The notes under the pieces are model-generated. The model made no database searches. It saw only the letters and a list, made by a program, of their open reading frames with translations, and was not told the DNA's origin. This document shows, in pieces, positions 1-12,007 of a stretch of DNA of 12,007 nt. The position numbers and the translations under genes are program-made. Every line of letters starts with the position of its first letter. The stretch's first letter is position 1. The DNA lies in IMG/VR virus record IMGVR_UViG_2698536414_000003. One strand, written 5' to 3'. This stretch comes from a virus (taxonomy: Duplodnaviria; Heunggongvirae; Uroviricota; Caudoviricetes).

Positions 1-45
1 CCAGCTCTGAGCCTCAAGACGATCCTGAATGTAATAAGCGTTCAT
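1..45 (-). CDS. N-terminal 15 codons of an early-left gene that continues leftward out of the window; possibly lambda Ea10-like
   Basis: Minus-strand ATG at 43-45 reads [15 protein letters not shown] and runs off the window edge. The Ea10 resemblance is from memory only. Confidence 0.35.
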
Positions 46-120
46 GGCTGAACTCCTGAAAATGGCTGTGAAAATATCGCCCGCGAAATGCCAGGCTGAT
101 TAGGAAAACAGGAAAGGGGA

Positions 121-411
121 TTAGTGATTCAGGCCGTTACCGCGTCCGTCGAGAAAAACTTCCACGAGCAAATCACGGGTATAAGTGCGCTCGATGCCGC
201 GATGCAGATAAAGCCGTCCGCGTAAATTAGCTGATGCAGTCCAGGTACCATCTTTGTGTTTGACCAGCATTCCTGGCATGACCGCACCTCGATTAACGGT
301 CTGCGTTCCATAATGTTGATGAACCATAAAAACTCCTGCCCGTAAGCTGGGCTGCTGAACATATAGAGACTTCTGCGCGTATTCAGGCGGTGGATGGCCG
401 CCGGTTGTCAT
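121..411 (-). CDS. Hypothetical 96-aa protein, first gene downstream of the predicted PL (the position N occupies in lambda)
   Basis: Longest minus-strand ORF between PL and the next gene, about 190 nt downstream of the predicted PL start. It is basic and Gly/His/Arg-rich but has no recognisable N-type arginine-rich motif. An overlapping alternative frame exists at 129-362. Confidence 0.4.
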
Positions 412-599
412 AACTAAGCCGCCTCGTTGAAGCGACTAAGGTATGAAATGTTGAGTTAATTTCAGCTGGTCACACCGACGTTCACGCGTCCGTTTCACCC
501 CTCGCACTCCCCGAAGCCTGCTGAAATTCAAACTGCGGATCTAAGCGGTCATCGCAACGGTGAATCAGGTAGTTGCCGTATCGTTGTGTTGTTGCGATG

Positions 600-640
600 A
601 ACTTATTTAAAACTATAGTTGTTTTATCGTCAACAACAAA
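600..640 (-). promoter_or_regulatory. PL-like leftward promoter with overlapping operator (OL)
   Basis: On the minus strand: TTGACG (plus 628-633), a 17-nt spacer, then TTAAAT (plus 605-610). The spacer ATAAAACAACTATAGTT closely matches the PR spacer AAAAACAACCATAGTTT. Further GTTGTTTT/CAACAAC motifs lie at 616-660. Confidence 0.55.
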
Positions 641-773
641 AGTTGTTTTATTGGTTGTTTTAGATATAACTGGTTGTATTTAGGATGGATTTATTTTGTG
701 ACTTGCATCGCACAGCGATAACTGAAGCGAGGTCGTGGTGGTTTTTTGAACGGTTTGTGTGATGAGGGGAGGC

Positions 774-801
774 AAAAGAAAACCCGGCACGACGGCCGGG
801 G
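774..801 (-). terminator. Intrinsic terminator closing the repressor-cargo operon
   Basis: Minus-strand hairpin CCCGGCCGTCGTGCCGGG (plus 783-800) followed by TTTTCTTTT, immediately after the stop of the 805-1668 gene. Confidence 0.6.
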
Positions 802-804
802 AAA

Positions 805-1668
805 TCATTTCGCATCTACAATAAATAACCTGTTTATCTGGCCTTTTTTAACAGTAGCCTTTGCGGTTATAGTGAATACTGCAGATGGATCACCTTTGGT
901 TGATATATATGCACTAAGAGCTCTAATATACGGGTTATTCTTCTTTCCTGCAGCTGGATCGCTAATTTCAGCAGTGATTCTCTTTTTTGAGTCATCACCA
1001 TCTAAAATTATTTTAGCTGTCATATTTTGTGCATCAAATTCTGTAAGAAAAGCACGATACTCACGAAGACCGAGAACTTCATCATCATCAAGCCTATCAA
1101 TTTCAGCTTTATCTCTCTCGTTAACTTTTAGAAGGCAGCCGTCAACATTTGTTGCAACACTTATCTGATCGCAAGTATTACCAATAGGTGATACTGCCTG
1201 CCTTACAGAGGGGCGAAGCTCTACAGCCATTCGGTCAATCAAAGAGATCAACTTATCAATGGTTCCAGCATCCTTGTTTCCTAGTGCCTCTATGGCCTTT
1301 TCAAGTGACTGCTGCAAAGCTTTCATTTCATCTTTCTTGTTAGAATTTCTCGCAAAAATATATTGTAGTATTGCGCCAAGTATAGTTGCGGCGATCCCCG
1401 AGAACAACTGGTTCTGAGTGGCGAAGTTAAGAACTGCTTCAAGAGTAAAGCAGTTAGCTTTTGCTTCGCGTGCGTAAACCTTAACTTCCTGATAATTAAT
1501 GTATTTACTATATTTTTGTGTAACAGAGAAAGAAGCTGCTGTTGAGAGAACTTTAGAAAAACCCTTTAGGGATTCTCCTAGGCAGTTCAAATCTATTTCA
1601 TGATTTAAAGCATCTTTTCCGTCATACCTAAGAGAGATTTTTATATCCTGTAAAGCGTCACAATCCAT
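805..1668 (-). CDS. 287-aa hypothetical protein with one central transmembrane helix; immunity-region cargo at the rexAB-equivalent position; candidate exclusion/abortive-infection gene
   Basis: Clean ORF with a GAGAG Shine-Dalgarno 66 nt downstream of the repressor stop. The DNA is visibly more AT-rich than its flanks. Hydrophobic segment [18 protein letters not shown] at about residues 88-105 (plus 1354-1407). I recognise no family. Confidence 0.7.
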
Positions 1669-1734
1669 AAATCGCTCTCGTCTAATTCTAATTAAATTTA
1701 CTATCCCCTAAACGACTCATCAGCACAGTACTGA

Positions 1735-2424
1735 TTATCCATGTTTCCTGTACGTCTGGGGCATGCTCCCAATAACCTTACCGAAGATGAACACCCGGTT
1801 CATCTCGTCTTTCTCGATCGGGTCCCACGGTGAGTAGCTCTTGTTATCAGAGATAACCAGCAGCTTATCCTTCATCATTTGCAGGCGCTTTACATGGGCT
1901 GTGTCGTCGTACAGAAACGCATAGATACCATCACCGTCGAAAGATTTAACCGTGATATCAACGAACAGCAGATCACCTGGTTCGATCGTTCCTGACATGC
2001 TGTCACCACGCACGTTAATGATGCGGATATTTTCCGCCTTCCTACCATCGAACATGTGACGAGCATCGTCAAACGAGTACTCAACCGAGCGTAGAACTTC
2101 TACAAACTCACGGTTGATGACTCCCGGCCCAGCACTGACTTCTATATCAAGAACGTCAATCTTGAAGTATTTGGAATGGCTGACAGTTGATTGTATTGGT
2201 TGCACTGTACTGTCTGACATATTTCCAACGCCAGAAGATAACCATTCTGCGCGCACACCCAAAGCGTTCGCGATCTCCACGATTTTAGTTGTTTGATTAG
2301 CTTTCCCTGTTTCGATTTTCTGAATAGCAGCCTGGCTAACCCCGACCAAATCCCCAAGCGCCTTTTGTGTAAGGCCTCGCGCTAATCTGGCTTCTTTAAG
2401 TCTTTCTGAGAGTGTTGTTTTCAT
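1735..2424 (-). CDS. cI: CI-type repressor (N-terminal XRE helix-turn-helix, C-terminal S24 LexA-like autopeptidase)
   Basis: HTH segment LTQKALGDLVGVSQAAIQKIETGK; Ala-Gly cleavage site in VSAGPG; GDSM serine motif and HVKRL lysine. Start taken at the ATG at 2424 (MKTTLSERLKEA), which looks leaderless as in lambda PRM; the longer ORF to 2490 would run through the operator. Confidence 0.85.
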   Translation of the reverse strand: MKTTLSERLKEARLARGLTQKALGDLVGVSQAAIQKIETGKANQTTKIVEIANALGVRAEWLSSGVGNMSDSTVQPIQSTVSHSKYFKIDVLDIEVSAGPGVINREFVEVLRSVEYSFDDARHMFDGRKAENIRIINVRGDSMSGTIEPGDLLFVDITVKSFDGDGIYAFLYDDTAHVKRLQMMKDKLLVISDNKSYSPWDPIEKDEMNRVFIFGKVIGSMPQTYRKHG

Positions 2425-2510
2425 AGTCCAAATGTACAACCAAGGTTTTATTCCATCAAACGAAAATGGTTGTTGACTAAAAACAACCATAGTTTTAATC
2501 TTGATTCAAA
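2425..2510. promoter_or_regulatory. OR region with divergent PRM (leftward) and PR (rightward) and three operator-like sites
   Basis: PR: TTGACT 2473-2478, 17-nt spacer, TAATCT 2496-2501. PRM on the minus strand: TTGATG (plus 2455-2460) and TACATT (plus 2431-2436) six nt before the cI ATG. Inverted repeat ATGGTTGTT (2466-2474) / AACAACCAT (2482-2490), plus ACAACCAAGGTTTT at 2435-2448. Confidence 0.6.
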
Positions 2511-2528
2511 TTAACCACGGAGGTTGTT

Positions 2529-2759
2529 ATGAACCCAGCTATCAAAACAGCGATCAATATCGTTGGTTCACAAAAGAAACTGGGCGCTGCTTGCGAAGTT
2601 TCACAGCAGGCCGTCTATAAGTGGCTTCACAACAAAGCAAAGGTATCCCCTGAACATGTCGGCAGCATTGTTACGGCTACTGGTGGAGTAGTGAAGGCAT
2701 ACCAGATTCGCCCGGATCTTCCGAAGTTGTTTCCACACACCGAAAAGAACGCAGCTTAA
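2529..2759 (+). CDS. cro: Cro/YdaS-family HTH regulator (Cro analog)
   Basis: 76 aa, GGAGG Shine-Dalgarno at 2519-2523, divergent from the repressor. HTH-like segment KKLGAACEVSQQAVYKW and an RPDL motif as I recall for YdaS-type Cro proteins. Confidence 0.8.
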   Translation: MNPAIKTAINIVGSQKKLGAACEVSQQAVYKWLHNKAKVSPEHVGSIVTATGGVVKAYQIRPDLPKLFPHTEKNAA

Positions 2760-2771
2760 ATTTCCATTTCA

Positions 2772-2784
2772 CGCTCTTTAACAA
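2772..2784 (+). promoter_or_regulatory. boxA-like element (nutR candidate)
   Basis: CGCTCTTTAACAA between cro and the next gene matches the boxA consensus. No clear GC-rich boxB hairpin follows. Confidence 0.45.
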
Positions 2785-2828
2785 TAAGCAATCAACTTAA
2801 CAGTCAATTCAAACTAAAGGAGTCAATT

Positions 2829-3368
2829 ATGCAACCACTTACATACCAACAGACTAGCGGATTTAGCCCGACTGCGGTGATAAATCGTTCTCAAACAAAA
2901 CAGGTGCCAGGCCACGAAAAAATCCGTGATGCCGTCCGCGCCTGGTCGGCTGTAGATAATCAGGATGTCGTTGCCACACTCATTGTGAATGAGTATCGGG
3001 AGCAGGGCGGCGGCACCATCGATTTCCCTGATGATGTCAGCCGTGCACGCCAGAAGCTGTTCCGCTTCCTCGATAACAAATTCGATTCTGAAAAATACCG
3101 AAATAACGTGCGTGAACTGACCCCGGCAATTCTGGCGGTACTACCGCTGGAATATCGCGGTTACCTGGTTGAGCAGGATAGCTTCATGGCTAGGTTGGCT
3201 GAAATGGAAAAGGAACTCAGTGAGGCAAAACAGGCTGTCATTCTCAACGCACCACGCCACCAGAAACTGAAGGAAATTAGTGAAGGTATTGTGTCGATGT
3301 TTCGTGTGGACCCAGATCTGGCTGGTCCATTGATGGCGATGGTTACTACCATGCTGGGGGCGATATGA
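2829..3368 (+). CDS. YdaT-like protein at the cII position
   Basis: 179 aa with AAGGAG Shine-Dalgarno. Motifs EYREQGGG and LTPAILAVLP resemble what I recall of Rac YdaT, which follows YdaS. Family call is from memory. Confidence 0.5.
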   Translation: MQPLTYQQTSGFSPTAVINRSQTKQVPGHEKIRDAVRAWSAVDNQDVVATLIVNEYREQGGGTIDFPDDVSRARQKLFRFLDNKFDSEKYRNNVRELTPAILAVLPLEYRGYLVEQDSFMARLAEMEKELSEAKQAVILNAPRHQKLKEISEGIVSMFRVDPDLAGPLMAMVTTMLGAI

Positions 3369-3454
3369 CAGGTTCAGAAATGGCGAAAGCCGGTCTGCTG
3401 GAACAGAACCGACTTTCAGGTGCAAATCGTAACACACTCATTGCGGGAGGAATT

Positions 3455-4384
3455 ATGGCAAACACTGCTGAGATATTCAATTTTCCAGTGCCGGATGCGG
3501 CACAAAAGGAGCCGCGCGTGGCAGATCTCGATGATGGTTATACGCGCATTGCAAATGAGTTGCTGGAAGCTGTGATGCTGGCCGGATTAACACAGCACCA
3601 GCTTCTGGTCTTCCTAGCTGTCATGCGCAAAACATATGGCTTTAATAAAAAACTGGATTGGGTGAGCAACGAGCAACTGTCCGAATTGACCGGGATATTG
3701 CCGCACAAGTGTTCTGCTGCAAAAAGTGTTCTGGTAAAGCGTGGGATTCTTATTCAGAGCGGGCGGAATACCGGCATTAATAATGTGGTCAGTGAATGGT
3801 CAACATTACCCGAATCAGGTAAGAAAAATAAAGTTTACCTGAAAGAGGTAAATTTACCTGAATCAGGTAAAAAAAGTTTACCCAAATCAGGTAAAGACGT
3901 TTACCCGAATCAGGTAAACACAAAAGACAAACTAACAAAAGACAATATAAAACCTTTTTCGTCCGAGAATTCTGGCGAATCCTCTGACCAGCCAGAAAAC
4001 GACCTTCCTGTGGAGAAACCAGATGCTGCAATTCAGAGCGGCAGCAGGTGGGGGACAGCAGAAGACCTGACCGCCGCAGAGTGGATGTTTGACATGGTGA
4101 AGACCATCGCGCCATCAGCCAGAAAACCGAATTTTGCAGGGTGGGCTAACGATATCCGCCTGATGCGTGAACGTGACGGACGTAACCACCGCGACATGTG
4201 CGTGCTGTTCCGCTGGGCATGCCAGGACAACTTCTGGTCCGGTAACGTGCTAAGTCCGGCCAAACTCCGCGACAAGTGGACCCAACTCGAAATCAACCGT
4301 AACAAGCAACAGGCAGGCGTGACAGCTAGCAAACCAAAACTCGACCTGACAAACACAGACTGGATTTACGGGGTGGATCTATGA
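3455..4384 (+). CDS. O: Replication initiator O (lambda O-like, iteron-binding)
   Basis: GGGAGG Shine-Dalgarno then ATG at 3455; starts MANTAEIFNF...VADLDDGYTRIANELLEA, like lambda O (MTNTAKILNF...VADLDDGYARL). Ori iterons lie inside the gene; stop overlaps the P start (ATGA). Confidence 0.85.
   Translation: MANTAEIFNFPVPDAAQKEPRVADLDDGYTRIANELLEAVMLAGLTQHQLLVFLAVMRKTYGFNKKLDWVSNEQLSELTGILPHKCSAAKSVLVKRGILIQSGRNTGINNVVSEWSTLPESGKKNKVYLKEVNLPESGKKSLPKSGKDVYPNQVNTKDKLTKDNIKPFSSENSGESSDQPENDLPVEKPDAAIQSGSRWGTAEDLTAAEWMFDMVKTIAPSARKPNFAGWANDIRLMRERDGRNHRDMCVLFRWACQDNFWSGNVLSPAKLRDKWTQLEINRNKQQAGVTASKPKLDLTNTDWIYGVDL
3806..3958. repeat. Replication origin: five iterons plus an AT-rich tract inside O
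   Basis: TTACC(C/T)(G/A)AA(T/A)(C/G)AGGTAA copies at 3806-3822, 3835-3851, 3854-3870, 3878-3894 and 3901-3917, each with inverted ends, followed by an AT-rich stretch at 3918-3958. Confidence 0.8.
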
Positions 4385-5082
4385 AAAACATCGCCGCACA
4401 GATGATTAACTTTGACCGTGAGCAGATGCGTCGGATCGCCAACAACATGCCGGAACAGTATGACGAAAAGCCGCAGGTACAGCAGGTAGCGCAGATCATC
4501 AATGGTGTGTTCAGCCAGTTACTGGCAACTTTCCCGGCGAGCCTGGCTAACCGGGACCAGAACGAACTGAACGAAATCCGCCGCCAGTGGGTTCTGGCTT
4601 TCCGGGAAAACGGGATCACCACAATGGAACAGGTTAACGCAGGAATGCGCGTAGCCCGTCGGCAGAATCGACCATTCCTGCCATCACCCGGGCAGTTTGT
4701 TGCCTGGTGCCGGGAAGAAGCATCCGTTACCGCCGGGCTGCCAAACGCCAGCGAGCTGGTTGATATGGTTTACGAGTATTGCCGGAAACGTGGCCTGTAT
4801 CCGGATGCAGAGTCTTATCCGTGGAAATCAAACGCGCACTACTGGCTGGTTACCAACCTGTATCAGAACATGCGGGCCAATGCGCTGACTGATGCGGAAT
4901 TACGGCGCAAGGCTGCCGATGAACTGGCCTGTATGACAGCGCGAATTAACCGTGGTGAGGCGATACCTGAACCAGTAAAACAACTTCCTGTCATGGGCGG
5001 TAGACCTCTAAATCGTGCACAGGCTCTGGCGAAGATCGCAGAAATCAAAGCTAAGTTTGGGCTGAAAGGAGCAAGTGTATGA
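4381..5082 (+). CDS. P: Replication protein P (helicase loader), near-identical to lambda P
   Basis: 233 aa beginning MKNIAAQMINFDREQMRRIANNMPEQYDEKPQVQQVAQIINGVFSQLLATFPASLANRDQNE, matching lambda P as I recall it. Confidence 0.9.
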   Translation: MKNIAAQMINFDREQMRRIANNMPEQYDEKPQVQQVAQIINGVFSQLLATFPASLANRDQNELNEIRRQWVLAFRENGITTMEQVNAGMRVARRQNRPFLPSPGQFVAWCREEASVTAGLPNASELVDMVYEYCRKRGLYPDAESYPWKSNAHYWLVTNLYQNMRANALTDAELRRKAADELACMTARINRGEAIPEPVKQLPVMGGRPLNRAQALAKIAEIKAKFGLKGASV

Positions 5083-5372
5083 CGGGCAAAGAGGCAATTA
5101 TTTATTACCTGGGGACGCATAAGAGCTTCTGTGCGCAGGACGTTGCCGCGGTAACAGGCGCAACAGTAACCAGCATAAATCAGGCTGCGGCTAAAATGGC
5201 GCGGGCAGGAATCTTGGTCATTGATGGTAAGGTCTGGCGAACGGTGTATTACAGATTCGCTACCAGGGAAGAACGGGAAGGAAAGGTGAGCACTAACCTG
5301 ATTTTTAAGGAGTGTCGCCAGAGTGCCGCGATGAAGCGGGTGTTGATGGTTTGGGGGAGGGTAGGGGTATGA
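5079..5372 (+). CDS. ren: Ren protein
   Basis: 97 aa MTGKEAIIYYLGTHKSFCAQDVAAVTGATVTSINQAAAKMARAGILVIDGKVWRTVYYRFATREEREGK, matching lambda Ren; ATGA overlap with P. Confidence 0.85.
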   Translation: MTGKEAIIYYLGTHKSFCAQDVAAVTGATVTSINQAAAKMARAGILVIDGKVWRTVYYRFATREEREGKVSTNLIFKECRQSAAMKRVLMVWGRVGV

Positions 5373-5569
5373 GCATGATGGATTTCGCAGAAACTAAAAA
5401 GGCTATCGACGCCATCACAACCGACTGGTCTATCCGAGGACCGTATCACGAAGACGACGGGAAATATTACGCCTTGCTTCGTGGAGAGTGGGTTGGTGGC
5501 GGGTATATCGGAAAACGGAAAGCCCTTGATGCCATTCTCGAAAAGTTAATCCAGGAGGCCGCCCAATGA
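5369..5569 (+). CDS. Hypothetical 66-aa nin-region protein
   Basis: ATG overlaps the ren stop (ATGA at 5369-5372). The longer ORF from 5312 would lie inside ren. Confidence 0.5.
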   Translation: MSMMDFAETKKAIDAITTDWSIRGPYHEDDGKYYALLRGEWVGGGYIGKRKALDAILEKLIQEAAQ

Positions 5570-5778
5570 GCAACATCGACAAACCAATGACAAACCGTGA
5601 ACTGGTGGATGCCGCCATTGAATTGGCCGGAGAGTTTTATGCGATGCAGGGCTATTCGCATCGTCCTGGCTTCAAGTATTGGCAATCTCCGCACCCGCAT
5701 GAGCGCCTGTGCTTTGAAATGGTCTTGTGTGGCATTCGAAACCATTCGCGGCTCAGATGTAATGGACGCCGTATCTGA
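5566..5778 (+). CDS. Hypothetical 70-aa Cys/His-containing protein, possibly frameshifted near its 3' end
   Basis: ATGA overlap with the upstream gene. Its first 19 nt are identical to the start of the 5794 gene (MSNIDK). The +1 frame ORF 5597-5797 ends in an ATGA overlap with the 5794 start, suggesting the true C-terminus may be in that frame. Confidence 0.4.
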   Translation: MSNIDKPMTNRELVDAAIELAGEFYAMQGYSHRPGFKYWQSPHPHERLCFEMVLCGIRNHSRLRCNGRRI

Positions 5779-5793
5779 GTTGGAGGATGAAGA

Positions 5794-6207
5794 ATGAGCA
5801 ACATCGACAAACGCGCATTACGTGAAATCGCTGAGGCAGCAGTTGGTGCACATGAGCGCCTTAGTGTTATGCCGCCTGATGACATTTTCGATATCTCACT
5901 GGCAGAAGGAACTCAGCTTGATGCAGATATCACTGCCTTGAACGCGCTGAACTCCGTAGCCAACCCAGCCACAGTGCTGGCGCTGCTGGATGAGCTGGAA
6001 GCCAAAGACCAGAGGATTGCTGTGCTGACCGAATCGCTCAAGCAGACGGTTTCAGGATACAAATCCTGCCTGCGTACCGGACATGAGCGCATTCTTGACC
6101 TTGGCGGTGACTGTGACGCGCCAGAAGTGATGATTGCAGGCAATCCTGACATTCAGCAGGCGCAGAAGCTGATCGCCGCCGCATCCGGTAAAGGAGAGGC
6201 ATCATGA
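5794..6207 (+). CDS. Ead/Ea22-like family protein (tentative)
   Basis: 137 aa, GGAGGA Shine-Dalgarno. The LALLDELEAKDQRIAVL coiled-coil segment resembles what I recall of Ead/Ea22-like prophage proteins. Confidence 0.55.
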   Translation: MSNIDKRALREIAEAAVGAHERLSVMPPDDIFDISLAEGTQLDADITALNALNSVANPATVLALLDELEAKDQRIAVLTESLKQTVSGYKSCLRTGHERILDLGGDCDAPEVMIAGNPDIQQAQKLIAAASGKGEAS

Positions 6208-7010
6208 GCACTATTACCAAACAATGGCTGCAGCAGAAAATTGCCGACATGGAAGCAGCCAGAGATGAAATCCCGTTCGGTCTGGACGAAGGCGACAGCA
6301 ACACGCTGGCGGCACTGCGTATCGCGCTGGCATCGCTCGAAGCGGAGCCTGCCATTCACCGGTGGCGTCGTGTGACCTCTGAGCCATACGGCCCCTATCC
6401 TTGGCATTATGGTGATTTTATCGGCTTCTCAAAGCCCGTTGATGGGATTGAGGATGAGTATTTTTACTCCGCCCCGCCAGAGCCAGCCAATGCCGAAACC
6501 GTAGCCTGGATGTGGTCACACAGGAAACACCCGAGCGAAGTCACGCTTGTTCGCCCTGAAGATGATGAGAGAGCGGAGGGTGCTCACTGGTCTGGCTGGA
6601 GTTGTCAGGCGCTTTATGCAGCACCGCCAGTTCCGGTATCTGTGCCCACATTCGAGAAATGGTGTGAGTTGACTGAGCAGAAACCTGTCGGATGGGTGCG
6701 TGATGCTATGAAAGAAGCGTATGACGGATGCCGCGACGCCATGCTTCAGGGGGCCGAAAAAGCCGAGTCGCCCACCACCATGCAGACCGCGCCAGCCCTA
6801 GATTCTTCGCCAAAAATTTCCGAGTCGCCCGTCAGCAACTCTCCGGTGATTCCGGATGGTTGGGTGCTGGTTCCTAAGGAGCCAACTCCAGAAATGCGTG
6901 AGGCGTACCATCAGGCGCAGGAAGAGTGTGAAGATGGCGGTAGATTATGGAGCCCAGACCACCAATGGAAGGCCATGATCGCAGCAGCACCGCAGCAGGA
7001 GGCGAAGTGA
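6204..7010 (+). CDS. Hypothetical 268-aa acidic protein with a Pro/Ser-rich linker
   Basis: ATGA overlap with the upstream gene and AGGAGAGG Shine-Dalgarno. No family recognised. Confidence 0.6.
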   Translation: MSTITKQWLQQKIADMEAARDEIPFGLDEGDSNTLAALRIALASLEAEPAIHRWRRVTSEPYGPYPWHYGDFIGFSKPVDGIEDEYFYSAPPEPANAETVAWMWSHRKHPSEVTLVRPEDDERAEGAHWSGWSCQALYAAPPVPVSVPTFEKWCELTEQKPVGWVRDAMKEAYDGCRDAMLQGAEKAESPTTMQTAPALDSSPKISESPVSNSPVIPDGWVLVPKEPTPEMREAYHQAQEECEDGGRLWSPDHQWKAMIAAAPQQEAK

Positions 7011-7061
7011 TTATGTCGTGACAGCATAATTGCGATGTCAACGATAAGCAGAGGTTTGAAA

Positions 7062-7256
7062 ATGAAATCACAATCACCAGTGCAGCATGAAGTTAACATC
7101 GACGGCAAAGAGTATGTTGTCACAGTAGTCCAAACCGGCAAGTCAACGTGGAGGGCATGGGGAGATTCCTGGGGGCGCCATATAGTCGAAACAGGTTCTA
7201 GCGAACATAGCGCGCTTTCTCATTGGAAAGCAAAAGCTTTAGTTATGAATGGGTAG
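7062..7256 (+). CDS. Hypothetical 64-aa protein
   Basis: AGAGG Shine-Dalgarno 7 nt before the ATG at 7062. The earlier ATG at 7035 has no Shine-Dalgarno. Confidence 0.45.
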   Translation: MKSQSPVQHEVNIDGKEYVVTVVQTGKSTWRAWGDSWGRHIVETGSSEHSALSHWKAKALVMNG

Positions 7257-7285
7257 CGCGGAAACTTTGAAGGTATAATCCCCTC
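7250..7285 (+). promoter_or_regulatory. Candidate promoter for the 7306 gene
   Basis: Perfect -10 TATAAT at 7274-7279 about 27 nt before the ATG; the -35 is weak. Confidence 0.35.
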
Positions 7286-7305
7286 AAATAATCGAGAGGG
7301 TTTTT

Positions 7306-7815
7306 ATGTCTGGTTGGGATAACGGTATAGATGCAGTTTCTGCGATTGCAGCTATCGCATCTGCGGTAGCAACTTATTTAGCATGGCGATCCTCAGAAGC
7401 TAGCAGGGCCACATCCGAAAAAGCTTTGCAGTTGCAAGGAAAGCAGTATTTGTACGAGACATTAAAAGCTTGCGCTGAGAGAGCGAATTCATACTCAAAA
7501 GGAAAGAAAGGGGCTGACTGGAGCTTTCATGACGCAGCCAATATTGTTCGATGTTTGAACATGGCAATGGGGAGCATAATAAATTACTCAGATACCAACA
7601 ATCAGGATGCAATGAAAGGTCTGAAGCAATTCTTTATTAGCCAATTAAACATGGAGCTTTTTGAAGAGCTCAACTATGAGGTTGGGCCTGATGCCTTCTT
7701 TCACGGAGAGGAGCTAACCAGCATGACGAGCGATATTTACTCGCAGTGGTTAAACATTATTTCATTCTTTAACCTCATGATTGTCACAGATGATGACCTC
7801 GCCGATGAAACATAG
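7306..7815 (+). CDS. 169-aa hypothetical membrane protein (N-terminal transmembrane helix), low-GC cargo
   Basis: GAGGG Shine-Dalgarno. N-terminal hydrophobic helix IDAVSAIAAIASAVATYLAW. More AT-rich than neighbours and followed by a 187-bp non-coding gap. Confidence 0.65.
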   Translation: MSGWDNGIDAVSAIAAIASAVATYLAWRSSEASRATSEKALQLQGKQYLYETLKACAERANSYSKGKKGADWSFHDAANIVRCLNMAMGSIINYSDTNNQDAMKGLKQFFISQLNMELFEELNYEVGPDAFFHGEELTSMTSDIYSQWLNIISFFNLMIVTDDDLADET

Positions 7816-8002
7816 CTTGATTGATTTTCCATAATCAACCCGCCATAATCATGTCATCGGAGCCTGAACAACTCCGGTGACTTCTGCGCTAAACGGGGAC
7901 GTTTATGCGCACATACAATCCAACCTCTCTTCTCCATTCACAGATGCAGAAATGCACCTGCGATATTTTGCATCCAGCGTTTGATCTCTGCGGAGGTGAA
8001 GC

Positions 8003-8458
8003 GTGAACCTCCCACAAGATGGTATCAAATTGCATCGCGGTAACTTCACCGCTATCGGTCGGCAGATCCAGCCTTATCTGGAGGACGGCAAATGCTTTCG
8101 CATGGTGCTTAAACCGTGGCGCGAGAGACGCAGTCTTTCCCAGAATGCACTCAGCCACATGTGGTACAGCGAAATCAGTGAATACCTCATCAGCAAGGGT
8201 AAAACGTTCGCTACTCCAGCTTGGGTAAAAGATGCTCTCAAACACACATATCTCGGTTATGAAACCAAAGACCTGGTTGATGTCGTAACCGGTGATATCA
8301 CCACTATCCAGTCGTTACGCCATACCTCCGATCTTGATACCGGAGAGATGTATGTCTTCCTGTGTAAGGTTGACGCCTGGGCGATGAATATTGGTTGCCA
8401 CCTGACTATTCCACAGAGCTGCGAGTTTCAGCTGCTGCGCGACAAGCAGGAGGCGTAA
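8003..8458 (+). CDS. ybcN: YbcN-like protein
   Basis: 151 aa, at the head of the ybcN-ninE-ybcO-rusA-ylcG order I recall from the DLP12 prophage. Confidence 0.7.
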
Positions 8459-8628
8459 TGGCTACACCGCTTATTCGTGTCATGAACGGACACATCTACA
8501 GAGTACCAAATCGTCGTAAGCGTAAACCTGAGCTGAAGCCATCCGAAATACCAACACTGCTCGGATATACCGCCAGCTTGGTTGATAAAAAATGGTTGCG
8601 ACTGGCAGCAAGGAGGAGTCATGGCTGA
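8458..8628 (+). CDS. ninE: NinE
   Basis: 56 aa [56 protein letters not shown]; TAATG overlap with ybcN. Confidence 0.75.
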   Translation: MATPLIRVMNGHIYRVPNRRKRKPELKPSEIPTLLGYTASLVDKKWLRLAARRSHG

Positions 8629-8911
8629 TTTGAGAAAAGAAGCGCGTGGTCGGGAATGCCAGGTAAGAATCTCTGGCGTATGTAATGGCAACCCTGAAAC
8701 GTCTGTACTGGCACATATCCGGCTGACTGGATTGTGCGGCACCGGTACGAAACCGCCAGACCTGATTGCCACCATTGCATGTTCTGCCTGCCACGACGAA
8801 ATCGACCGTCGCACGCATTTTGTTGACGCTGGATATGCAAAAGAATGCGCGCTGGAAGGTATGGCGAGAACGCAGGTTATCTGGCTGAAAGAGGGGGTAA
8901 TTAAGGCGTGA
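8621..8911 (+). CDS. ybcO: YbcO-like protein (putative nuclease)
   Basis: 96 aa from the ATG at 8621 with AGGAGG Shine-Dalgarno; Cys/His-rich. Confidence 0.7.
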
Positions 8912-9270
8912 ATACTTACCACATCACACTACCCTGGCCGCCGAGCAATAACCGCTACTACCGCCATAATCGAGGGCGCACGCACATCAGCGCAGAAGGG
9001 CAGGCATACCGCGATAACGTCGCCCGAATCATTAAAGGCTCAATGCTGGATATCGGTCTGGCTATGCCTGTGAAAATCCGCATTGAGTGCCACATGCCGG
9101 ATCGCCGTCGCCGTGACCTGGATAATCTGCAAAAAGCCGCTTTTGACGCACTCACTAAAGCAGGTTTCTGGCTGGATGATGCTCAGGTCGTTGATTACCG
9201 CGTTGTGAAGATGCCTGTTACCAAAGGTGGGAGGCTGGAACTGACCATCACTGAACTGGGAGATGAATGA
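8908..9270 (+). CDS. rusA: RusA Holliday junction resolvase
   Basis: 120 aa [26 protein letters not shown]...[32 protein letters not shown], close to E. coli RusA. GTG start overlapping the ybcO stop. Confidence 0.9.
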
Positions 9271-9407
9271 TGTTTGAGTCTTATATGGCAGAACGTCTTC
9301 GCCGCCGCTGGGTGCGCCTGCGCTTATATCGTTTCCCCGGTTCTGTTTTGACCGATTACCGAATACTGAAGAGTTACGCCAAAACCCTGACAGGAGCAGG
9401 AGTATGA
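9267..9407 (+). CDS. ylcG: YlcG-like small protein (46 aa)
   Basis: Not in the ORF track. Hand-translated: [49 protein letters not shown] overlapping the rusA stop. Confidence 0.65.
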
Positions 9408-9492
9408 AGTCAGAGATAACAATCAACTAATACTGTTTTGTTGATTTTTGCTTGTAATTGGCGTTTTGGTCTGATTTTTGTGGAGTAAGTTG

Positions 9493-9927
9493 ATGCGTGA
9501 TATTCAGATGGTTCTTGAGCGTTGGGGGGCGTGGGCGGCTAATAATCATGAAGATGTGACCTGGTCGTCCATTGCCGCCGGATTTAAGGGACTGATCCCC
9601 GAAAAAGTAAAATCACGTCCACAGTGCTGTGACGATGATGCGATGGTGATATGCGGGTGCATAGCCCGCCTTTACCGGAACAATCGCGATCTGCATGACT
9701 TGCTGGTTGATTATTACGTGTTGGGGGAGACGTTCATGGCGTTGGCACGGAAACATGGGTGCTCTGACACCTGTATAGGTAAACGCCTTCACAAAGCGGA
9801 GGGGATTGTTGAAGGCATGCTGATGATGCTGGGAGTGAGGCTTGAGATGGATCGGTATGTTGAGCGTGAATTGCCGGGAGGGAGAACCTCTGTATTTTAT
9901 CAGCGAAAAAATAGTTTACGATCGTAA
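9493..9927 (+). CDS. Q: Late-gene antiterminator Q (phage 82 / 933W-type)
   Basis: GGAG Shine-Dalgarno then ATG at 9493 ([19 protein letters not shown]), Cys-rich zinc-binding-like segment, followed by terminators and the tRNA cluster. Confidence 0.8.
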
Positions 9928-9972
9928 AAATCTGCATATCATGATAAGAGTGGTTACATTGCCACGCAGTCG

Positions 9973-9997
9973 AACCCGCCGATGCGCGGGTTTTTTT
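9973..9997 (+). terminator. Intrinsic terminator downstream of Q
   Basis: Stem CCCGC / GCGGG with a 6-nt loop, followed by seven T. Confidence 0.55.
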
Positions 9998-10177
9998 GTA
10001 CCCCGAATCCTGTGAGCTATACGGAAAGTACACAGAAAGGAAGGTGCGACCGTAATTAATAACAAAATCTTAAAAATCGCATATAGCACTATTAGTTTTC
10101 TAAATATTGTATATTTTAAGTATTGCAGGATAACCCTGTAACGAAGTTTGCGTAACAGCATTTTGCTCTACGAGTTT

Positions 10178-10206
10178 GCCAGCCTCCCCCAGTGGCTGGC
10201 TTTTTT
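10178..10206 (+). terminator. Strong intrinsic terminator (tR'-like)
   Basis: 7-bp stem GCCAGCC / GGCTGGC with a 9-nt loop, followed by six T; preceded by an AT-rich promoter-like region at 10040-10140. Confidence 0.6.
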
Positions 10207-10223
10207 ATGTCCGTAGCGTCAAA

Positions 10224-10328
10224 GCAGCAATGGCGCTGGGGCGTCGTGCAATTGGCGTTGAGCTGGAGAGCGGGCGTTTTGAGCAGACGGTCAGGGAAGT
10301 TCAGAATGTAGTCAGTCAGAACGGATGA
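10224..10328 (+). pseudogene. Possible 3' remnant of a DNA methyltransferase gene
   Basis: The frame ending at the TGA at 10326-10328 encodes SVKAAMALGRRAIGVELESGRFEQTVREVQNVVSQNG, resembling the C-terminal motif of amino-methyltransferases. No start codon or upstream catalytic motif; the frame runs through the terminator hairpin. Confidence 0.3.
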
Positions 10329-10368
10329 TATTGCAGAATTAGTTACGTACCGTTATTATCCTGCGCCC

Positions 10369-10444
10369 GGCCCTTTAGCTCAGTGGTGAGAGCGAGCGAC
10401 TCATAATCGCCAGGTCGCTGGTTCAAATCCAGCAAGGGCCACCA
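10369..10444 (+). tRNA. ileZ: tRNA-Ile (anticodon CAT, ileX-like)
   Basis: Cloverleaf folded by hand: 7-bp acceptor GGCCCTT / AAGGGCC, D-stem GCTC/GAGC, anticodon loop CTCATAA (CAT at 10402-10404), T-loop TTCAAAT, CCA encoded. Near-identical to E. coli ileX as I recall it; the CAT anticodon alone cannot exclude Met. Confidence 0.85.
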
Positions 10445-10451
10445 TCACATA

Positions 10452-10528
10452 CCGCCATTAGCTCATCGGGATAGAGCGTCAGCCTTCGAAGCTGGCTGTG
10501 CGGGGTTCAAGTCCCCGATGGCGGTCCA
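10452..10528 (+). tRNA. argN: tRNA-Arg (anticodon TCG)
   Basis: Acceptor CCGCCAT / ATGGCGG, anticodon loop CTTCGAA (TCG at 10486-10488), T-arm CGGGG TTCAAGT CCCCG, CCA encoded. Confidence 0.8.
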
Positions 10529-10541
10529 TTATCAGCATCAT

Positions 10542-10618
10542 GCGTTGTTAGCTCAGTCGGACAGAGCAATTGCCTTCTAAGCAATCGGTCACTGGTTCGA
10601 ATCCAGTACAACGCGCCA
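10542..10618 (+). tRNA. argO: tRNA-Arg (anticodon TCT)
   Basis: Acceptor GCGTTGT / ACAACGC, anticodon loop CTTCTAA (TCT at 10576-10578), T-loop TTCGAAT, CCA encoded. Confidence 0.85.
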
Positions 10619-10631
10619 TATTTATTTACTT

Positions 10632-10655
10632 GGCTCGCTTCGGCGGGCCTTTTTT
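10632..10655 (+). terminator. Intrinsic terminator after the tRNA cluster
   Basis: Stem GGCTCGC / GCGGGCC (one G-U pair) with a TTCG tetraloop, followed by six T. Confidence 0.6.
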
Positions 10656-10702
10656 GTATCTGCGCCACGCCCGGCGCATATCAACCACAGAGCCTTTCGG
10701 GG

Positions 10703-11218
10703 GTGAGCTTACGGAGTGGTCAGTGTGACTTTCTCTGTGGGCAGATCGCTCCCGGGCGTTGGCTCACCCACCCAAAGGAACGTCACGATGTTTGTATTTT
10801 TGGTAAAAAAGCCCGCCGAGCGGCAGTGGAAATTAAAAAGTTTGAGAAACGTGATCTGGCACAGGCGGTTATTAATGCTGCCTATCTGGTGGCCTATGCA
10901 GATGGTGAATGTGAGGCTTCAGAGAAAGTGAAGATCGAGCAGGTCTTGCGTAACCAGCCTGCGTTGTCCGCGTTTACGTCAGAAATTAATGCGATTAGCG
11001 CAACCATTATCGGTCAGCTGGATACGAACTTTAAAACTGGTCGTCGAGCGGCATTGCGTGAAATTGAAGATGTGAAACACGATACGCGTGAAGCGGAAGA
11101 TGTGCTGGATGTGGCGGTGGCCATTGCGGAGGCAGACGGCGAAATTGAGCCGGAAGAGCGCAAGGTGCTGGAAGAGATTGCCGGTGTTCTGGGTCTTCGT
11201 CTGGAGAATCACCTGTGA
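10703..11218 (+). CDS. TerB-like domain protein; start uncertain (possible -1 frameshift from the ATG at 10788, or a GTG start near 10826)
   Basis: Two ADG-containing motifs typical of TerB-like domains (LVAYADGECEASEKVKIEQVL and VAIAEADGEIEPEERKVLEEIAGVLGL). The frame has no internal ATG; the only ATG with a good Shine-Dalgarno (AAGGAA, ATG 10788) is in another frame. Confidence 0.55.
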   Translation: MSLRSGQCDFLCGQIAPGRWLTHPKERHDVCIFGKKARRAAVEIKKFEKRDLAQAVINAAYLVAYADGECEASEKVKIEQVLRNQPALSAFTSEINAISATIIGQLDTNFKTGRRAALREIEDVKHDTREAEDVLDVAVAIAEADGEIEPEERKVLEEIAGVLGLRLENHL

Positions 11219-11382
11219 CGGTAAAACTGCGCCTGGCTGTGGCTGCACTCCTGCTGTTTCTGGTGGTGATGGTGGATTTCACCAGCAGAATCATGTCGGT
11301 GCTGGCGGATGGGGTGCTGGTCTGCGGCATTGTGGTATTGCTGTGGCCGGTGATAAAAAGAAACAGCCTGCATAATGCTTGA
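11215..11382 (+). CDS. 55-aa small membrane protein with two predicted transmembrane helices
   Basis: Not in the ORF track. Hand-translated: VTVKLRLAVAALLLFLVVMVDFTSRIMSVLADGVLVCGIVVLLWPVIKRNSLHNA. GTG start overlaps the TerB-like stop (GTGA), with GGAGA Shine-Dalgarno 7 nt upstream. Confidence 0.45.
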   Translation: MTVKLRLAVAALLLFLVVMVDFTSRIMSVLADGVLVCGIVVLLWPVIKRNSLHNA

Positions 11383-11583
11383 TTTTTTTATTTGCTGTTT
11401 ATTAAAAACACTTCTGCATGGTGAATCCCCCTGTGCGGAGGGGCGATCAGCAACCAGGTATATGGGATAATCGCGGATTCAGGTGCTGATACTGAATTCA
11501 CCGGGAGGCACCCGGCACCATGCTTTGCCACAAAAGTGTTGTTTCTGTTTTTCTCAAACTATCATCGTTATCCCTTTATTTCC

Positions 11584-11610
11584 GGCTGCGCATGGCGTGG
11601 CCTTTTTTTT
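11584..11610 (+). terminator. Candidate intrinsic terminator before the nanS-p-like gene
   Basis: Imperfect hairpin GCTGCGC ATG GCGTGGC followed by eight T. Confidence 0.4.
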
Positions 11611-11696
11611 ACGACCAGCCACTGGCAGATGGCCATCCTGTAATTTGATTCCGGTTCCGGCTTTTTAACTCTGTTCCTGTACACGGGAGAAATTCG

Positions 11697-12007
11697 ATGT
11701 CGATTAAACATTATGATGTTGTCAGGGCGGCGTCGCCGTCAGACCTTGCGGAAAAGCTGACACACAAACTGAAAGAGGGCTGGCAGCCGTTTGGTAGTCC
11801 GGTGGCCATAACCCCTTATACCCTGATGCAGGCGATTGCAGCAGAAGGTGATGTGGTGGTCAGTGGTGCAACTGAGCCGGATTGGTACTACGTCATCGTA
11901 CTGGCCGGGCAGTCCAATGCTATGGCTTACGGTGAAGGGCTTCCGCTGCCGGATTCATACGATGCTCCGGATCCGCGCATTAAACAGCTGGCGCGCCGCA
12001 GTACAGT
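11697..12007 (+). CDS. 3'-truncated start of a NanS-p-like esterase (SGNH-type hydrolase)
   Basis: GGGAGA Shine-Dalgarno then ATG at 11697; MSIKHYDVVRAASPSDLAEKL... and a GQSNA motif. Resembles, from memory, the esterase gene downstream of stx in Stx phages. Runs off the window. Confidence 0.6.
   Translation, partial: MSIKHYDVVRAASPSDLAEKLTHKLKEGWQPFGSPVAITPYTLMQAIAAEGDVVVSGATEPDWYYVIVLAGQSNAMAYGEGLPLPDSYDAPDPRIKQLARRST

Follow-up and report, generated by a model that had tools for sequence, protein, structure and literature searches.

The window analysed here, a 12,007-nucleotide (nt) stretch of viral DNA from IMG/VR record IMGVR_UViG_2698536414_000003 in which all features lie on the plus strand unless stated otherwise, covers the early-right/late junction of a lambdoid prophage and carries a pair of genes, tciA and tciB, in the same interval where the Shiga toxin (Stx) phage 933W carries stx2AB. 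The pair is already known, having been named in phage P1, annotated in the same slot in phage JLK-2012 and also entered in RefSeq, and its coding features are real and not chance open reading frames (ORFs). The stx slot of 933W is filled here by a known, widespread and functionally uncharacterised accessory pair. On balance we favour a reading in which tciA and tciB form an accessory operon of the stx cargo slot that would be transcribed late and in dependence on the antiterminator Q, gated by a structured leader RNA, with TciB docking TciA at the membrane for a protective or exclusion role in lytic growth, and in which the copy present here is probably defective.

The gene order of the window runs through a cI-like repressor, cro, cII, O, P, the nin genes, rusA and Q, after which come a methylase remnant, three transfer RNA (tRNA) genes, the tciA-tciB ORFs and the start of nanS-p. 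In a blastn comparison of positions 9400-12007 with 933W, 9491-10666 were 97.3% identical to a block of the latter comprising Q, the annotated pR', qut, two terminators, ileZ/argN/argO and the terminator 'upstream of the stx genes'. Homology breaks approximately 40 base pairs (bp) before stxA2, returns after stxB2 at 11398 in the STnc100-like region and again at 11684 in nanS-p, and the same layout was seen by blastn and annotation in the Stx1 phage 75/02. Both flanks are homologous and the break falls at the stx cassette, which places the pair in the Stx-phage cargo slot between the post-tRNA terminator and STnc100/nanS-p, whereas the genes and products of stx2AB are unrelated to those of tciAB. 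An earlier note on this DNA, made from its letters alone, had put the pair in the stx position between the Q/tRNA cluster and nanS-p and had seen in it a TerB-like domain protein followed by a 55-residue two-helix membrane protein, and these claims are borne out by the comparisons given here and in the following paragraphs. The stx-negative prophages JLK-2012, O26:H11 11368 and O145 RM9872 share the whole slot (Q, tRNAs, tciA-tciB, STnc100 region and nanS-p) at 95-99% nucleotide identity with an identical TciB protein, and differ from the window in having an intact ATG and a 143-residue TciA; in some of them two further small ORFs separate the tRNAs from the leader. In JLK-2012, an Escherichia phage, the DNA annotated as tciA/tciB is 95% identical.

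The tciA reading frame occupies 10796-11218 and here is without a normal start. Taken as the open frame 10703-11218 it matches positions 2-109 of the 118-position Pfam TerB profile (PF05099; E 2.1e-14, 54.2 bits, gathering score 24.4), and with the family N-terminus restored TciA matches PHROG 632 ('tellurite resistance') over 143 of 143 positions (1.9e-68). A profile from the TciA alignment matched the solved Klebsiella TerB structure 2jxu across the whole domain (E 3.6e-15, positions 12-138 against 18-145). The AlphaFold2 (AF2) model, computed from a 22-sequence alignment, is all helical with eight helices (predicted local distance difference test score, pLDDT, 90.9; predicted template modelling score, pTM, 0.85), and the top Foldseek matches to it in the PDB were the TerB-like structures 2h5n (probability 1.00, template modelling score 0.55) and 2ou3 (probability 0.90), with weak E-values of 0.011-0.57. 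The protein contains duplicated acidic ADGxxxxxE motifs, YADGECEASE and EADGEIEPEE, in which D, G and E are invariant or nearly so across the 22 sequences and which in the TerB family are a proposed metal or ligand site. By hidden Markov model (HMM), solved-structure profile, fold and motifs TciA is a true member of the TerB family. It is acidic (isoelectric point 5.0) and has no hydrophobic segment, its N-terminal 22 residues are basic with a net charge of +6, and its ratio of non-synonymous to synonymous substitution rates (dN/dS) of 0.03-0.06 at dS up to 0.65 indicates purifying selection. Compared with the TerB of the Klebsiella terZABCDEF operon it shows whole-domain homology, the same duplicated acidic motifs and the same helical fold, and it differs in being phage-borne, in having a small membrane partner and in lacking TerC, TerD, TerE and TerZ.

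The second gene, tciB (11215-11382), starts at a GTG and encodes a 55-residue membrane hairpin protein identical to RefSeq WP_000216636.1. Its sole Pfam match above the cut-off is DUF3927 (62.3 bits, 4.3e-17), and it matches the 'TciB-like' PHROG 1470 at 54 of 54 positions (4e-30). Hydropathy gives two hydrophobic segments, at residues ~5-20 and 26-47, lysine or arginine stands at both termini, and the sequence suggests a topology with both termini inside (N-in/C-in) in the inner membrane. Residues D21, D32-G33 and W44-P45 are conserved. The small ORF is maintained in related prophages and phages, and its dN/dS of 0.18-0.26 at dS up to 0.65 again indicates purifying selection. The tciA stop and the tciB start overlap in the sequence GTGA at 11215-11218, and tciB has a GGAG of its own at 11203-11206. 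A literature search on DUF3927 returned nothing relevant.

The pair is common and travels as a unit. Among complete E. coli genomes 646 of 5,426 (~12%) hold at least 80% of the 1,081-bp stretch 10620-11700, which the Prokaryotic Genome Annotation Pipeline (PGAP) annotates as 'tellurite resistance TerB family protein | DUF3927 family protein'. Membership of the module was judged on full-length matches to both PHROG 632 and PHROG 1470 and on a tciB that directly follows tciA in the same orientation, its start touching or overlapping the tciA stop, all of which were found in the window, and the same stop/start arrangement is present in P1, Pollock, LIET2, ChrisDB, Kp4866-6 and 38 of 68 species-level loci. 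Searching with tblastn gave TciA homologues in 131 phage records, spanning lambdoid phages, P1/D6/SJ46, Klebsiella siphophages, Erwinia and Salmonella jumbo phages and virulent N4-like phages of Escherichia, Salmonella, Shigella, Vibrio and Pseudomonas. TciB, where detectable, stands directly downstream of TciA in lambdoid phages, P1, Klebsiella phages, Pantoea LIET2, Erwinia jumbo phages and virulent N4-like phages.

A species-level scan with one genome per species yielded 72 loci encoding a TciA relative, 68 of which were checked for a partner. In 65 of these a small hydrophobic ORF starts between -12 and +4 nt from the TerB stop; 38 of the small ORFs match the TciB HMM and 24 belong to a second family of 65-72 residues with one transmembrane helix, all in Pseudomonas or Geopseudomonas genomes (loci L114, L116-L118, L121-L123, L126, L135-L136, L140, L142-L145, L147, L149-L150, L153, L156-L159 and L161). 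The second family carries a Cys-containing C-terminal motif, C.[WY]YG[YF]QT[DE]R...VGCMV...W.PR.E.R, and takes the place of TciB, joined to the TerB gene by a 4-nt overlap, in these Pseudomonas-group prophages and in two Pseudomonas phages (L014, L016). The conserved unit is a TerB protein with a translationally coupled small membrane protein, and the membrane partner is interchangeable; as it recurs in 65 of 68 loci this combination defines a minimal, portable TerB system. Fusions of TerB with DUF3927 (P0127, P0180) were considered as evidence of interaction and set aside, being rare junction mutants of E. coli alleles and not natural fusions.

Phage P1 and the P1-like phage-plasmids encode both protein families in tciA-tciB(-tciC), with TciA 41-52% identical, a DUF3927 TciB bearing the conserved motif VDFTS..LSVL.DG, the same gene order and a tight stop/start junction; in P1 too the genes are non-essential accessories adjoining phage tRNA genes. 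P1 differs in placing the pair in the C1-repressed ban (early) operon with a third small gene, tciC, and without the conserved leader, whereas in the window the pair lies in a region that would be Q-dependent and late, and tciA is frameshifted. An adjacency of tciAB to phage tRNA genes was observed in three phage types unrelated to one another, namely in P1 (L008 1616-3276), in the Erwinia jumbo phage ChrisDB (L013 586-2814), in lambdoid JLK-2012 (L001 5755-5988) and in the window (10369-10618). A tRNA-tciAB cassette shared between P1 and lambdoid phages was rejected as blastn found no similarity between P1 and the JLK-2012 locus at 5701-6800, which holds the tRNAs and tciAB.

Transcription of the pair was assessed from the signals upstream of it. 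The antiterminator gene Q (9493-9927, its start set by the RefSeq homologue) is of the 933W type, with a Pfam Phage_antitermQ match of 1.5e-51 and 97.3% nucleotide identity to the 933W Q region. A pR'-like late promoter found by promoter scan at 9915-9942 (TTTACG-16-TATCAT) coincides through the 97% alignment with the annotated pR' of 933W. Three terminators separate it from tciA: a tR'-like intrinsic terminator just downstream of pR' at 9972-9998, whose equivalent is annotated in 933W; a second terminator-like hairpin with a T run at 10178-10206, which was recognised by eye, corresponds to the terminator at 20929-20957 of 933W and was missed by the terminator scan because of its 9-nt loop; and the terminator after the tRNA cluster at 10632-10657, found by scan and the same as that upstream of stx in 933W. 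The scan itself reported the first and the last of these at 9972-9993 and 10632-10649. A local promoter scan detected no sigma-70-like site between the last terminator and tciA. In 933W the polymerase modified by Q reads from pR' through these terminators into stx2. From the homology with 933W, the three terminators after pR' and the absence of a sigma-70-like site before tciA, Q-dependent late transcription of tciAB is a sound inference, so the earlier note's prediction of Q-dependent late expression stands as a reasonable one whose basis is homology.

Between the post-tRNA terminator and the family start codon of tciA lies a leader of ~125 nt (10662-10787) that is conserved far beyond what would be expected from the coding sequence. 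It is ~83% identical to that of Klebsiella phages in which TciA itself is only ~42% identical (e.g. Kp4873-4), and 73-77% identical to that of Erwinia and Salmonella jumbo phages. Of 80 E. coli-type IMG/VR loci 77 have it, as do all nine species-level loci with a TciA at least 69% identical, and it was absent upstream of the tciA homologues of P1, Pollock, Pectobacterium and Pseudomonas. Single-base indels among its homologues show that it is non-coding. With nhmmer the leader was also found directly upstream of the antirepressor gene ant, downstream of the lysis gene R, in the Stx phages 933W (L009 7210-7351, E 1e-6) and Shigella phage 75/02 (L007 7901-8047, E 4.6e-12), and thus stands before no fewer than two cargo genes, tciA and ant, that are unrelated to each other. 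Upstream of stxA2 only its first hairpin is shared.

The structure proposed for the leader was counted on a 21-sequence alignment whose diversity came from the species-level genome scan, a first IMG/VR scan having given only near-identical E. coli loci. It comprises a hairpin H0 (10662-10677), a helix P1 (10685-10692 with 10733-10740), a hairpin P2 (10718-10730) and three segments, X (10693-10709), Y (10746-10755) and Z (10761-10778), of which X is complementary to the Shine-Dalgarno (SD) sequence AAGGA (10775-10779) held in Z and may pair with either Z or Y. The long-range helix X:Z buries the tciA SD; the alternative X:Y, a long hairpin, leaves it largely free and is the minimum free energy (MFE) fold of the window leader (-57.3 kcal/mol, z -2.5). 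RNAalifold alone recovered H0 and helix P1, and X:Z and X:Y were found by inspection and then counted. Across the alignment 93.0% of cells are paired and 18 of 34 pairs are changed on both sides, against 7.3+-1.8 in shuffles, none of 500 of which reached the observed value; controls in which the structure was slid along the alignment gave 32-50% pairing and 4-6 pairs changed on both sides. Covarying pairs number 5 of 5 in H0, 4 of 8 in helix P1 and 8 of 16 in X:Z, whereas support for X:Y is weaker, with 85.8% of cells paired and compensatory changes at 3 of 10 pairs. Under constrained folding X:Z was the MFE fold in 11 of 21 leaders, and in E. coli-type leaders X:Z and X:Y differ by 1-3 kcal/mol.

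The structure is thereby shown by covariation, and gating of tciA translation is what it would imply: X:Z would hold translation down by pairing the SD with its anti-SD until something opens the leader, and in E. coli-type leaders the nearly isoenergetic X:Y hairpin would free the SD. Long-range occlusion of a ribosome-binding site with a competing alternative helix is familiar from the rpoS leader, which is opened by DsrA, and from phage leaders processed by RNase III such as that of lambda N. The tciA leader resembles these in both respects, and differs in having no sequence or Rfam relationship to them and in being common to two unrelated cargo genes. No Rfam family reached its gathering score on the leader, and at E-values up to 10 there were only chance-level matches, the best being MIR156 (E 3.9); a literature search on a terB-associated RNA motif found nothing relevant, and the element is apparently undescribed. 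A preprint ties TerB genes to the small RNAs (sRNAs) PasA and PasC, but PasA and PasC lie by the holin operon, the window holds only an STnc100/PasD-like element, and the possibility that the tciA leader is a Pas sRNA was rejected.

The family start codon of tciA is the ATG at 10788, which lies 8 nt downstream of the SD AAGGA and in relatives opens a 143-residue product with the N-terminus MFGIFGKK. In pairwise alignment with JLK-2012 the window lacks one G of ATGTTTGGT at 10794, in codon 3 of tciA, and from ATG 10788 it reads MFVFLVKKPAERQ... to a stop at 10931. The JLK-2012 alignment, the translations and the ORF list agree that the native ATG here opens a 47-codon out-of-frame ORF (10788-10931), and the intact frame from the family ATG that module members otherwise have is missing. 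For identical alleles RefSeq places the start at an ATT, window position 10796, giving 140 residues; this ATT lies 16 nt from the SD. With the ATG out of frame TciA would be made only from the poorly placed ATT or by rare -1 slippage, and the window copy of tciA has probably lost all or part of its activity (null or hypomorphic) and is in the early phase of decay. The translational coupling of tciA and tciB put forward in the earlier note is supported by the GTGA overlap; with the start-proximal frameshift, ribosomes initiating at the native ATG are no longer coupled to tciB. The note's 5' boundary at GTG 10703, giving 171 residues, has to be abandoned as a mechanical artefact, this being simply the first start codon after a stop.

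The deletion is inherited and is not an error in the window, since the exact 65-mer across it recurs in seven of 766 matching E. coli records (~1% of copies) and in three of 80 IMG/VR loci. Five of the loci fetched carry the allele, one of which (L019) contains window positions 10700-11400 exactly, and the 82 other fetched loci are wild type across the family ATG. Three of the five (L005, L006, L020) also have TGG changed to TAG at W44 of TciB, equivalent to window 11344-11346, and tciB is intact in the window, L019 and L021 despite the deletion allele. The nonsense codon seems to have arisen once and to have been passed on within a sublineage, and it fits decay of the pair after tciA was hit. 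Inspection of the sequence shows the classic slippery heptamer A_AAA_AAG at 10805-10811, read as GTA AAA AAG from the native ATG, at which a -1 slip would, speculatively, restore the TciA frame. Programmed -1 frameshifting as a rescue was nevertheless rejected, as no stimulatory structure lies downstream, where the RNA folds no better than shuffles (z 0.10), and ~99% of copies need no frameshift; slippage at this site is possibly a source of basal leakage at most.

As we picture it, an intact tciAB would be read as part of the late pR' transcript, only when Q carries RNA polymerase past the three terminators, and once the leader had opened TciB, or a substitute small membrane protein, would dock TciA at the cytoplasmic face of the inner membrane. 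Docking is proposed because of the overlapping stop and start and the near-universal adjacency of the two genes. The complex would then act in lytic growth and not in the lysogen, as suggested by the homologues in strictly virulent phages and in the C1-repressed ban operon of P1. Its most likely role would be protection or exclusion at the level of the membrane, directed against superinfecting phages or colicin-like insults, and this is the weakest step of the proposal. An action against superinfecting phages has been suggested for phage TerB (PMC7824862). The defence systems Bunzi, Shango and Dionysus also contain TerB domains, which are read as serving membrane surveillance. These three systems resemble tciAB, as we envisage it, in having a TerB-domain protein that works with membrane proteins; they differ in that tciAB has no helicase, ATPase, MAEBL or pore-forming partners and is encoded by phages, including virulent ones.

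Several points weigh against this reading. In P1 tciABC is non-essential by CRISPR interference (CRISPRi) (PMC10695390), and it has been lost from approximately half of one group of P1-like elements, P1 subgroup 1 of that study (PMC9603915). Phages 434 and 2B8 carry tciB without tciA and the TerB gene of Vibrio phage K481 has no small membrane partner, and the partnership is not obligatory. No PADLOC defence model matched the pair, TciA giving a sub-threshold hit to PDC-S48 (E 0.011) and TciB nothing. The role proposed for TciA and TciB is the least certain part of the account. Q-dependence of tciAB is argued from homology, and low read-through from the tRNA promoter is possible. As regards the leader, helices P1 and X:Z cross and must form a pseudoknot or be alternatives, the compensatory changes come from few independent lineages, and the sequences on which the pairs were counted are those that had served to derive the structure. 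Membership of Shango, Bunzi or another PADLOC-modelled defence system was itself tried and rejected, with PADLOC negative and no helicase or ATPase neighbours among the window ORFs.

A related possibility, which we consider rather unlikely though the best placed of the alternatives, is that the phage uses the pair against competitors as a two-component exclusion or abortive system, in which TciA would be a TerB-type membrane sensor and TciB a small membrane-disrupting effector. Dionysus, which combines TerB with a pore-forming protein, depends on its TerB protein, Bunzi and Shango likewise contain TerB domains, a TerB gene without a coupled small membrane protein is rare, and conserved acidic residues of TciB lie within or beside the membrane. 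A nonsense codon in tciB in three of five loci after tciA broke would likewise fit the loss of an unguarded partner, were TciB toxic; however, that codon appears to have arisen once in a sublineage, PADLOC found no match, and tciB stands alone in 434 and 2B8. We regard as improbable the proposal that TciB sets the timing of lysis in the manner of a holin or antiholin, under regulation by TciA, which would place the pair in the late operon as part of the lysis programme. With two transmembrane segments, an N-in/C-in arrangement and a charged C-terminus TciB is superficially like the class II holins, and phage Evi has the pair immediately between its Q and S genes. Yet TciB is not placed among the class II holins or pinholins by any family match, DUF3927 alone exceeding the Pfam cut-off, the lambdoid prophages compared carry a class II holin of their own downstream, and P1, N4-like and jumbo phages have the pair in early or tRNA regions, at a distance from their lysis genes.

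The name under which the TerB gene is filed suggests a third alternative, namely a lysogenic-conversion determinant expressed in the lysogen that shields the host from tellurite. TciA is a true TerB homologue and both RefSeq and PHROG label it 'tellurite resistance'. However, terB needs terC, terD and terE to give tellurite resistance, and no terC, terD, terE or terZ was found among the window ORFs, which hold no other ter genes, or in the annotated neighbourhoods of homologous prophages. A strong terminator stands directly upstream and the scan detected nothing promoter-like, strictly virulent phages also carry homologues, and the P1 tciA/tciB names were assigned 'by homology' only. With no other ter genes and with expression in the lysogen unlikely a tellurite phenotype is itself unlikely, the label is an over-annotation that should not be taken as a function, and we give this alternative very little credence. 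Still less can be said for the 171-residue ORF from GTG 10703 as the functional product of an intact gene, for although the frame is open from 10703 the GTG lies inside the base-paired leader segment X with no properly spaced SD, 82 other fetched loci are wild type across a family ATG that is out of frame here, the leader is non-coding by its single-base indels, and RefSeq does not use the start.

Returning to the leader-gated tciAB operon of the stx slot, a further-reaching form of the proposal can be offered tentatively. In this form the ~100-nt leader (10685-10778) may be an undescribed phage-borne cis-regulatory RNA that silences tciA, and ant in Stx phages, by SD sequestration until a specific signal arrives, be it a ligand, a trans-acting sRNA or cleavage by RNase III; the gated TciA-TciB might be a minimal TerB module for membrane surveillance or exclusion; and together they could provide a two-gene model for the TerB domain in ter operons and in Shango, Bunzi and Dionysus. 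The minimal pair bears on the mechanism of the TerB domain both in tellurite resistance and in several defence systems. The leader is a candidate element for translational control of cargo genes inside a long late transcript and could matter for the expression of moron genes next to stx. The parts that we consider worth following are the SD-sequestering leader common to tciA and ant and the generality of the pairing of TerB with a membrane protein.

Downstream of tciB the window contains an STnc100-family (PasD-like) sRNA gene at 11390-11559, identified with the Rfam covariance model RF02076 over model positions 1-206 (104 bits, gathering score 47, E 2.5e-22). The segment is common to Stx phages, where it lies downstream of stxB, and a 2026 preprint relates the STnc100 family to the PasD sRNAs. 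A terminator-like hairpin followed by T8 was found by scan at 11584-11610. The 5' part of nanS-p, cut by the window end, occupies 11697-12007 and was identified by annotated homologues and by the DUF1737 N-terminus of the SASA esterase (Pfam 2.2e-16).

The three tRNA genes upstream of the pair (10369-10618; ARAGORN and Rfam) have the anticodons CAT (ileZ-type), Arg-TCG and Arg-TCT and are homologous to ileZ/argN/argO of 933W. ARAGORN called the tRNA at 10369-10444 Met(CAT); its homologue in 933W and RefSeq is tRNA-Ile (ileZ), with a CAT anticodon of the lysidine type. Between the second terminator and the tRNA genes, at 10176-10328, lies a DNA methyltransferase remnant, also present in 933W-type phages, which RefSeq homologues list as a pseudogene lacking its N-terminal part. 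In several prophages of enterohaemorrhagic E. coli (EHEC), e.g. that of O26:H11 11368 (locus L004 5434-6001), an insert of ~570 bp with two small hypothetical ORFs lies between the tRNA terminator and the tciA leader, bordered by a repeated copy of a ~30-bp terminator sequence (10635-10664 in the window, which has no insert). A mosaic breakpoint falls inside Q at 9767: window positions 1-9767 are 99.4% identical to prophages of strains such as NCTC9112, and from 9491 onward the sequence is the 933W-type Q/pR'/tRNA block. Beyond the repressor gene two ORFs on the minus strand encode 287 (805-1668) and 96 residues (121-411), and RefSeq names in this region include 'toxin YdaT domain-containing protein'.

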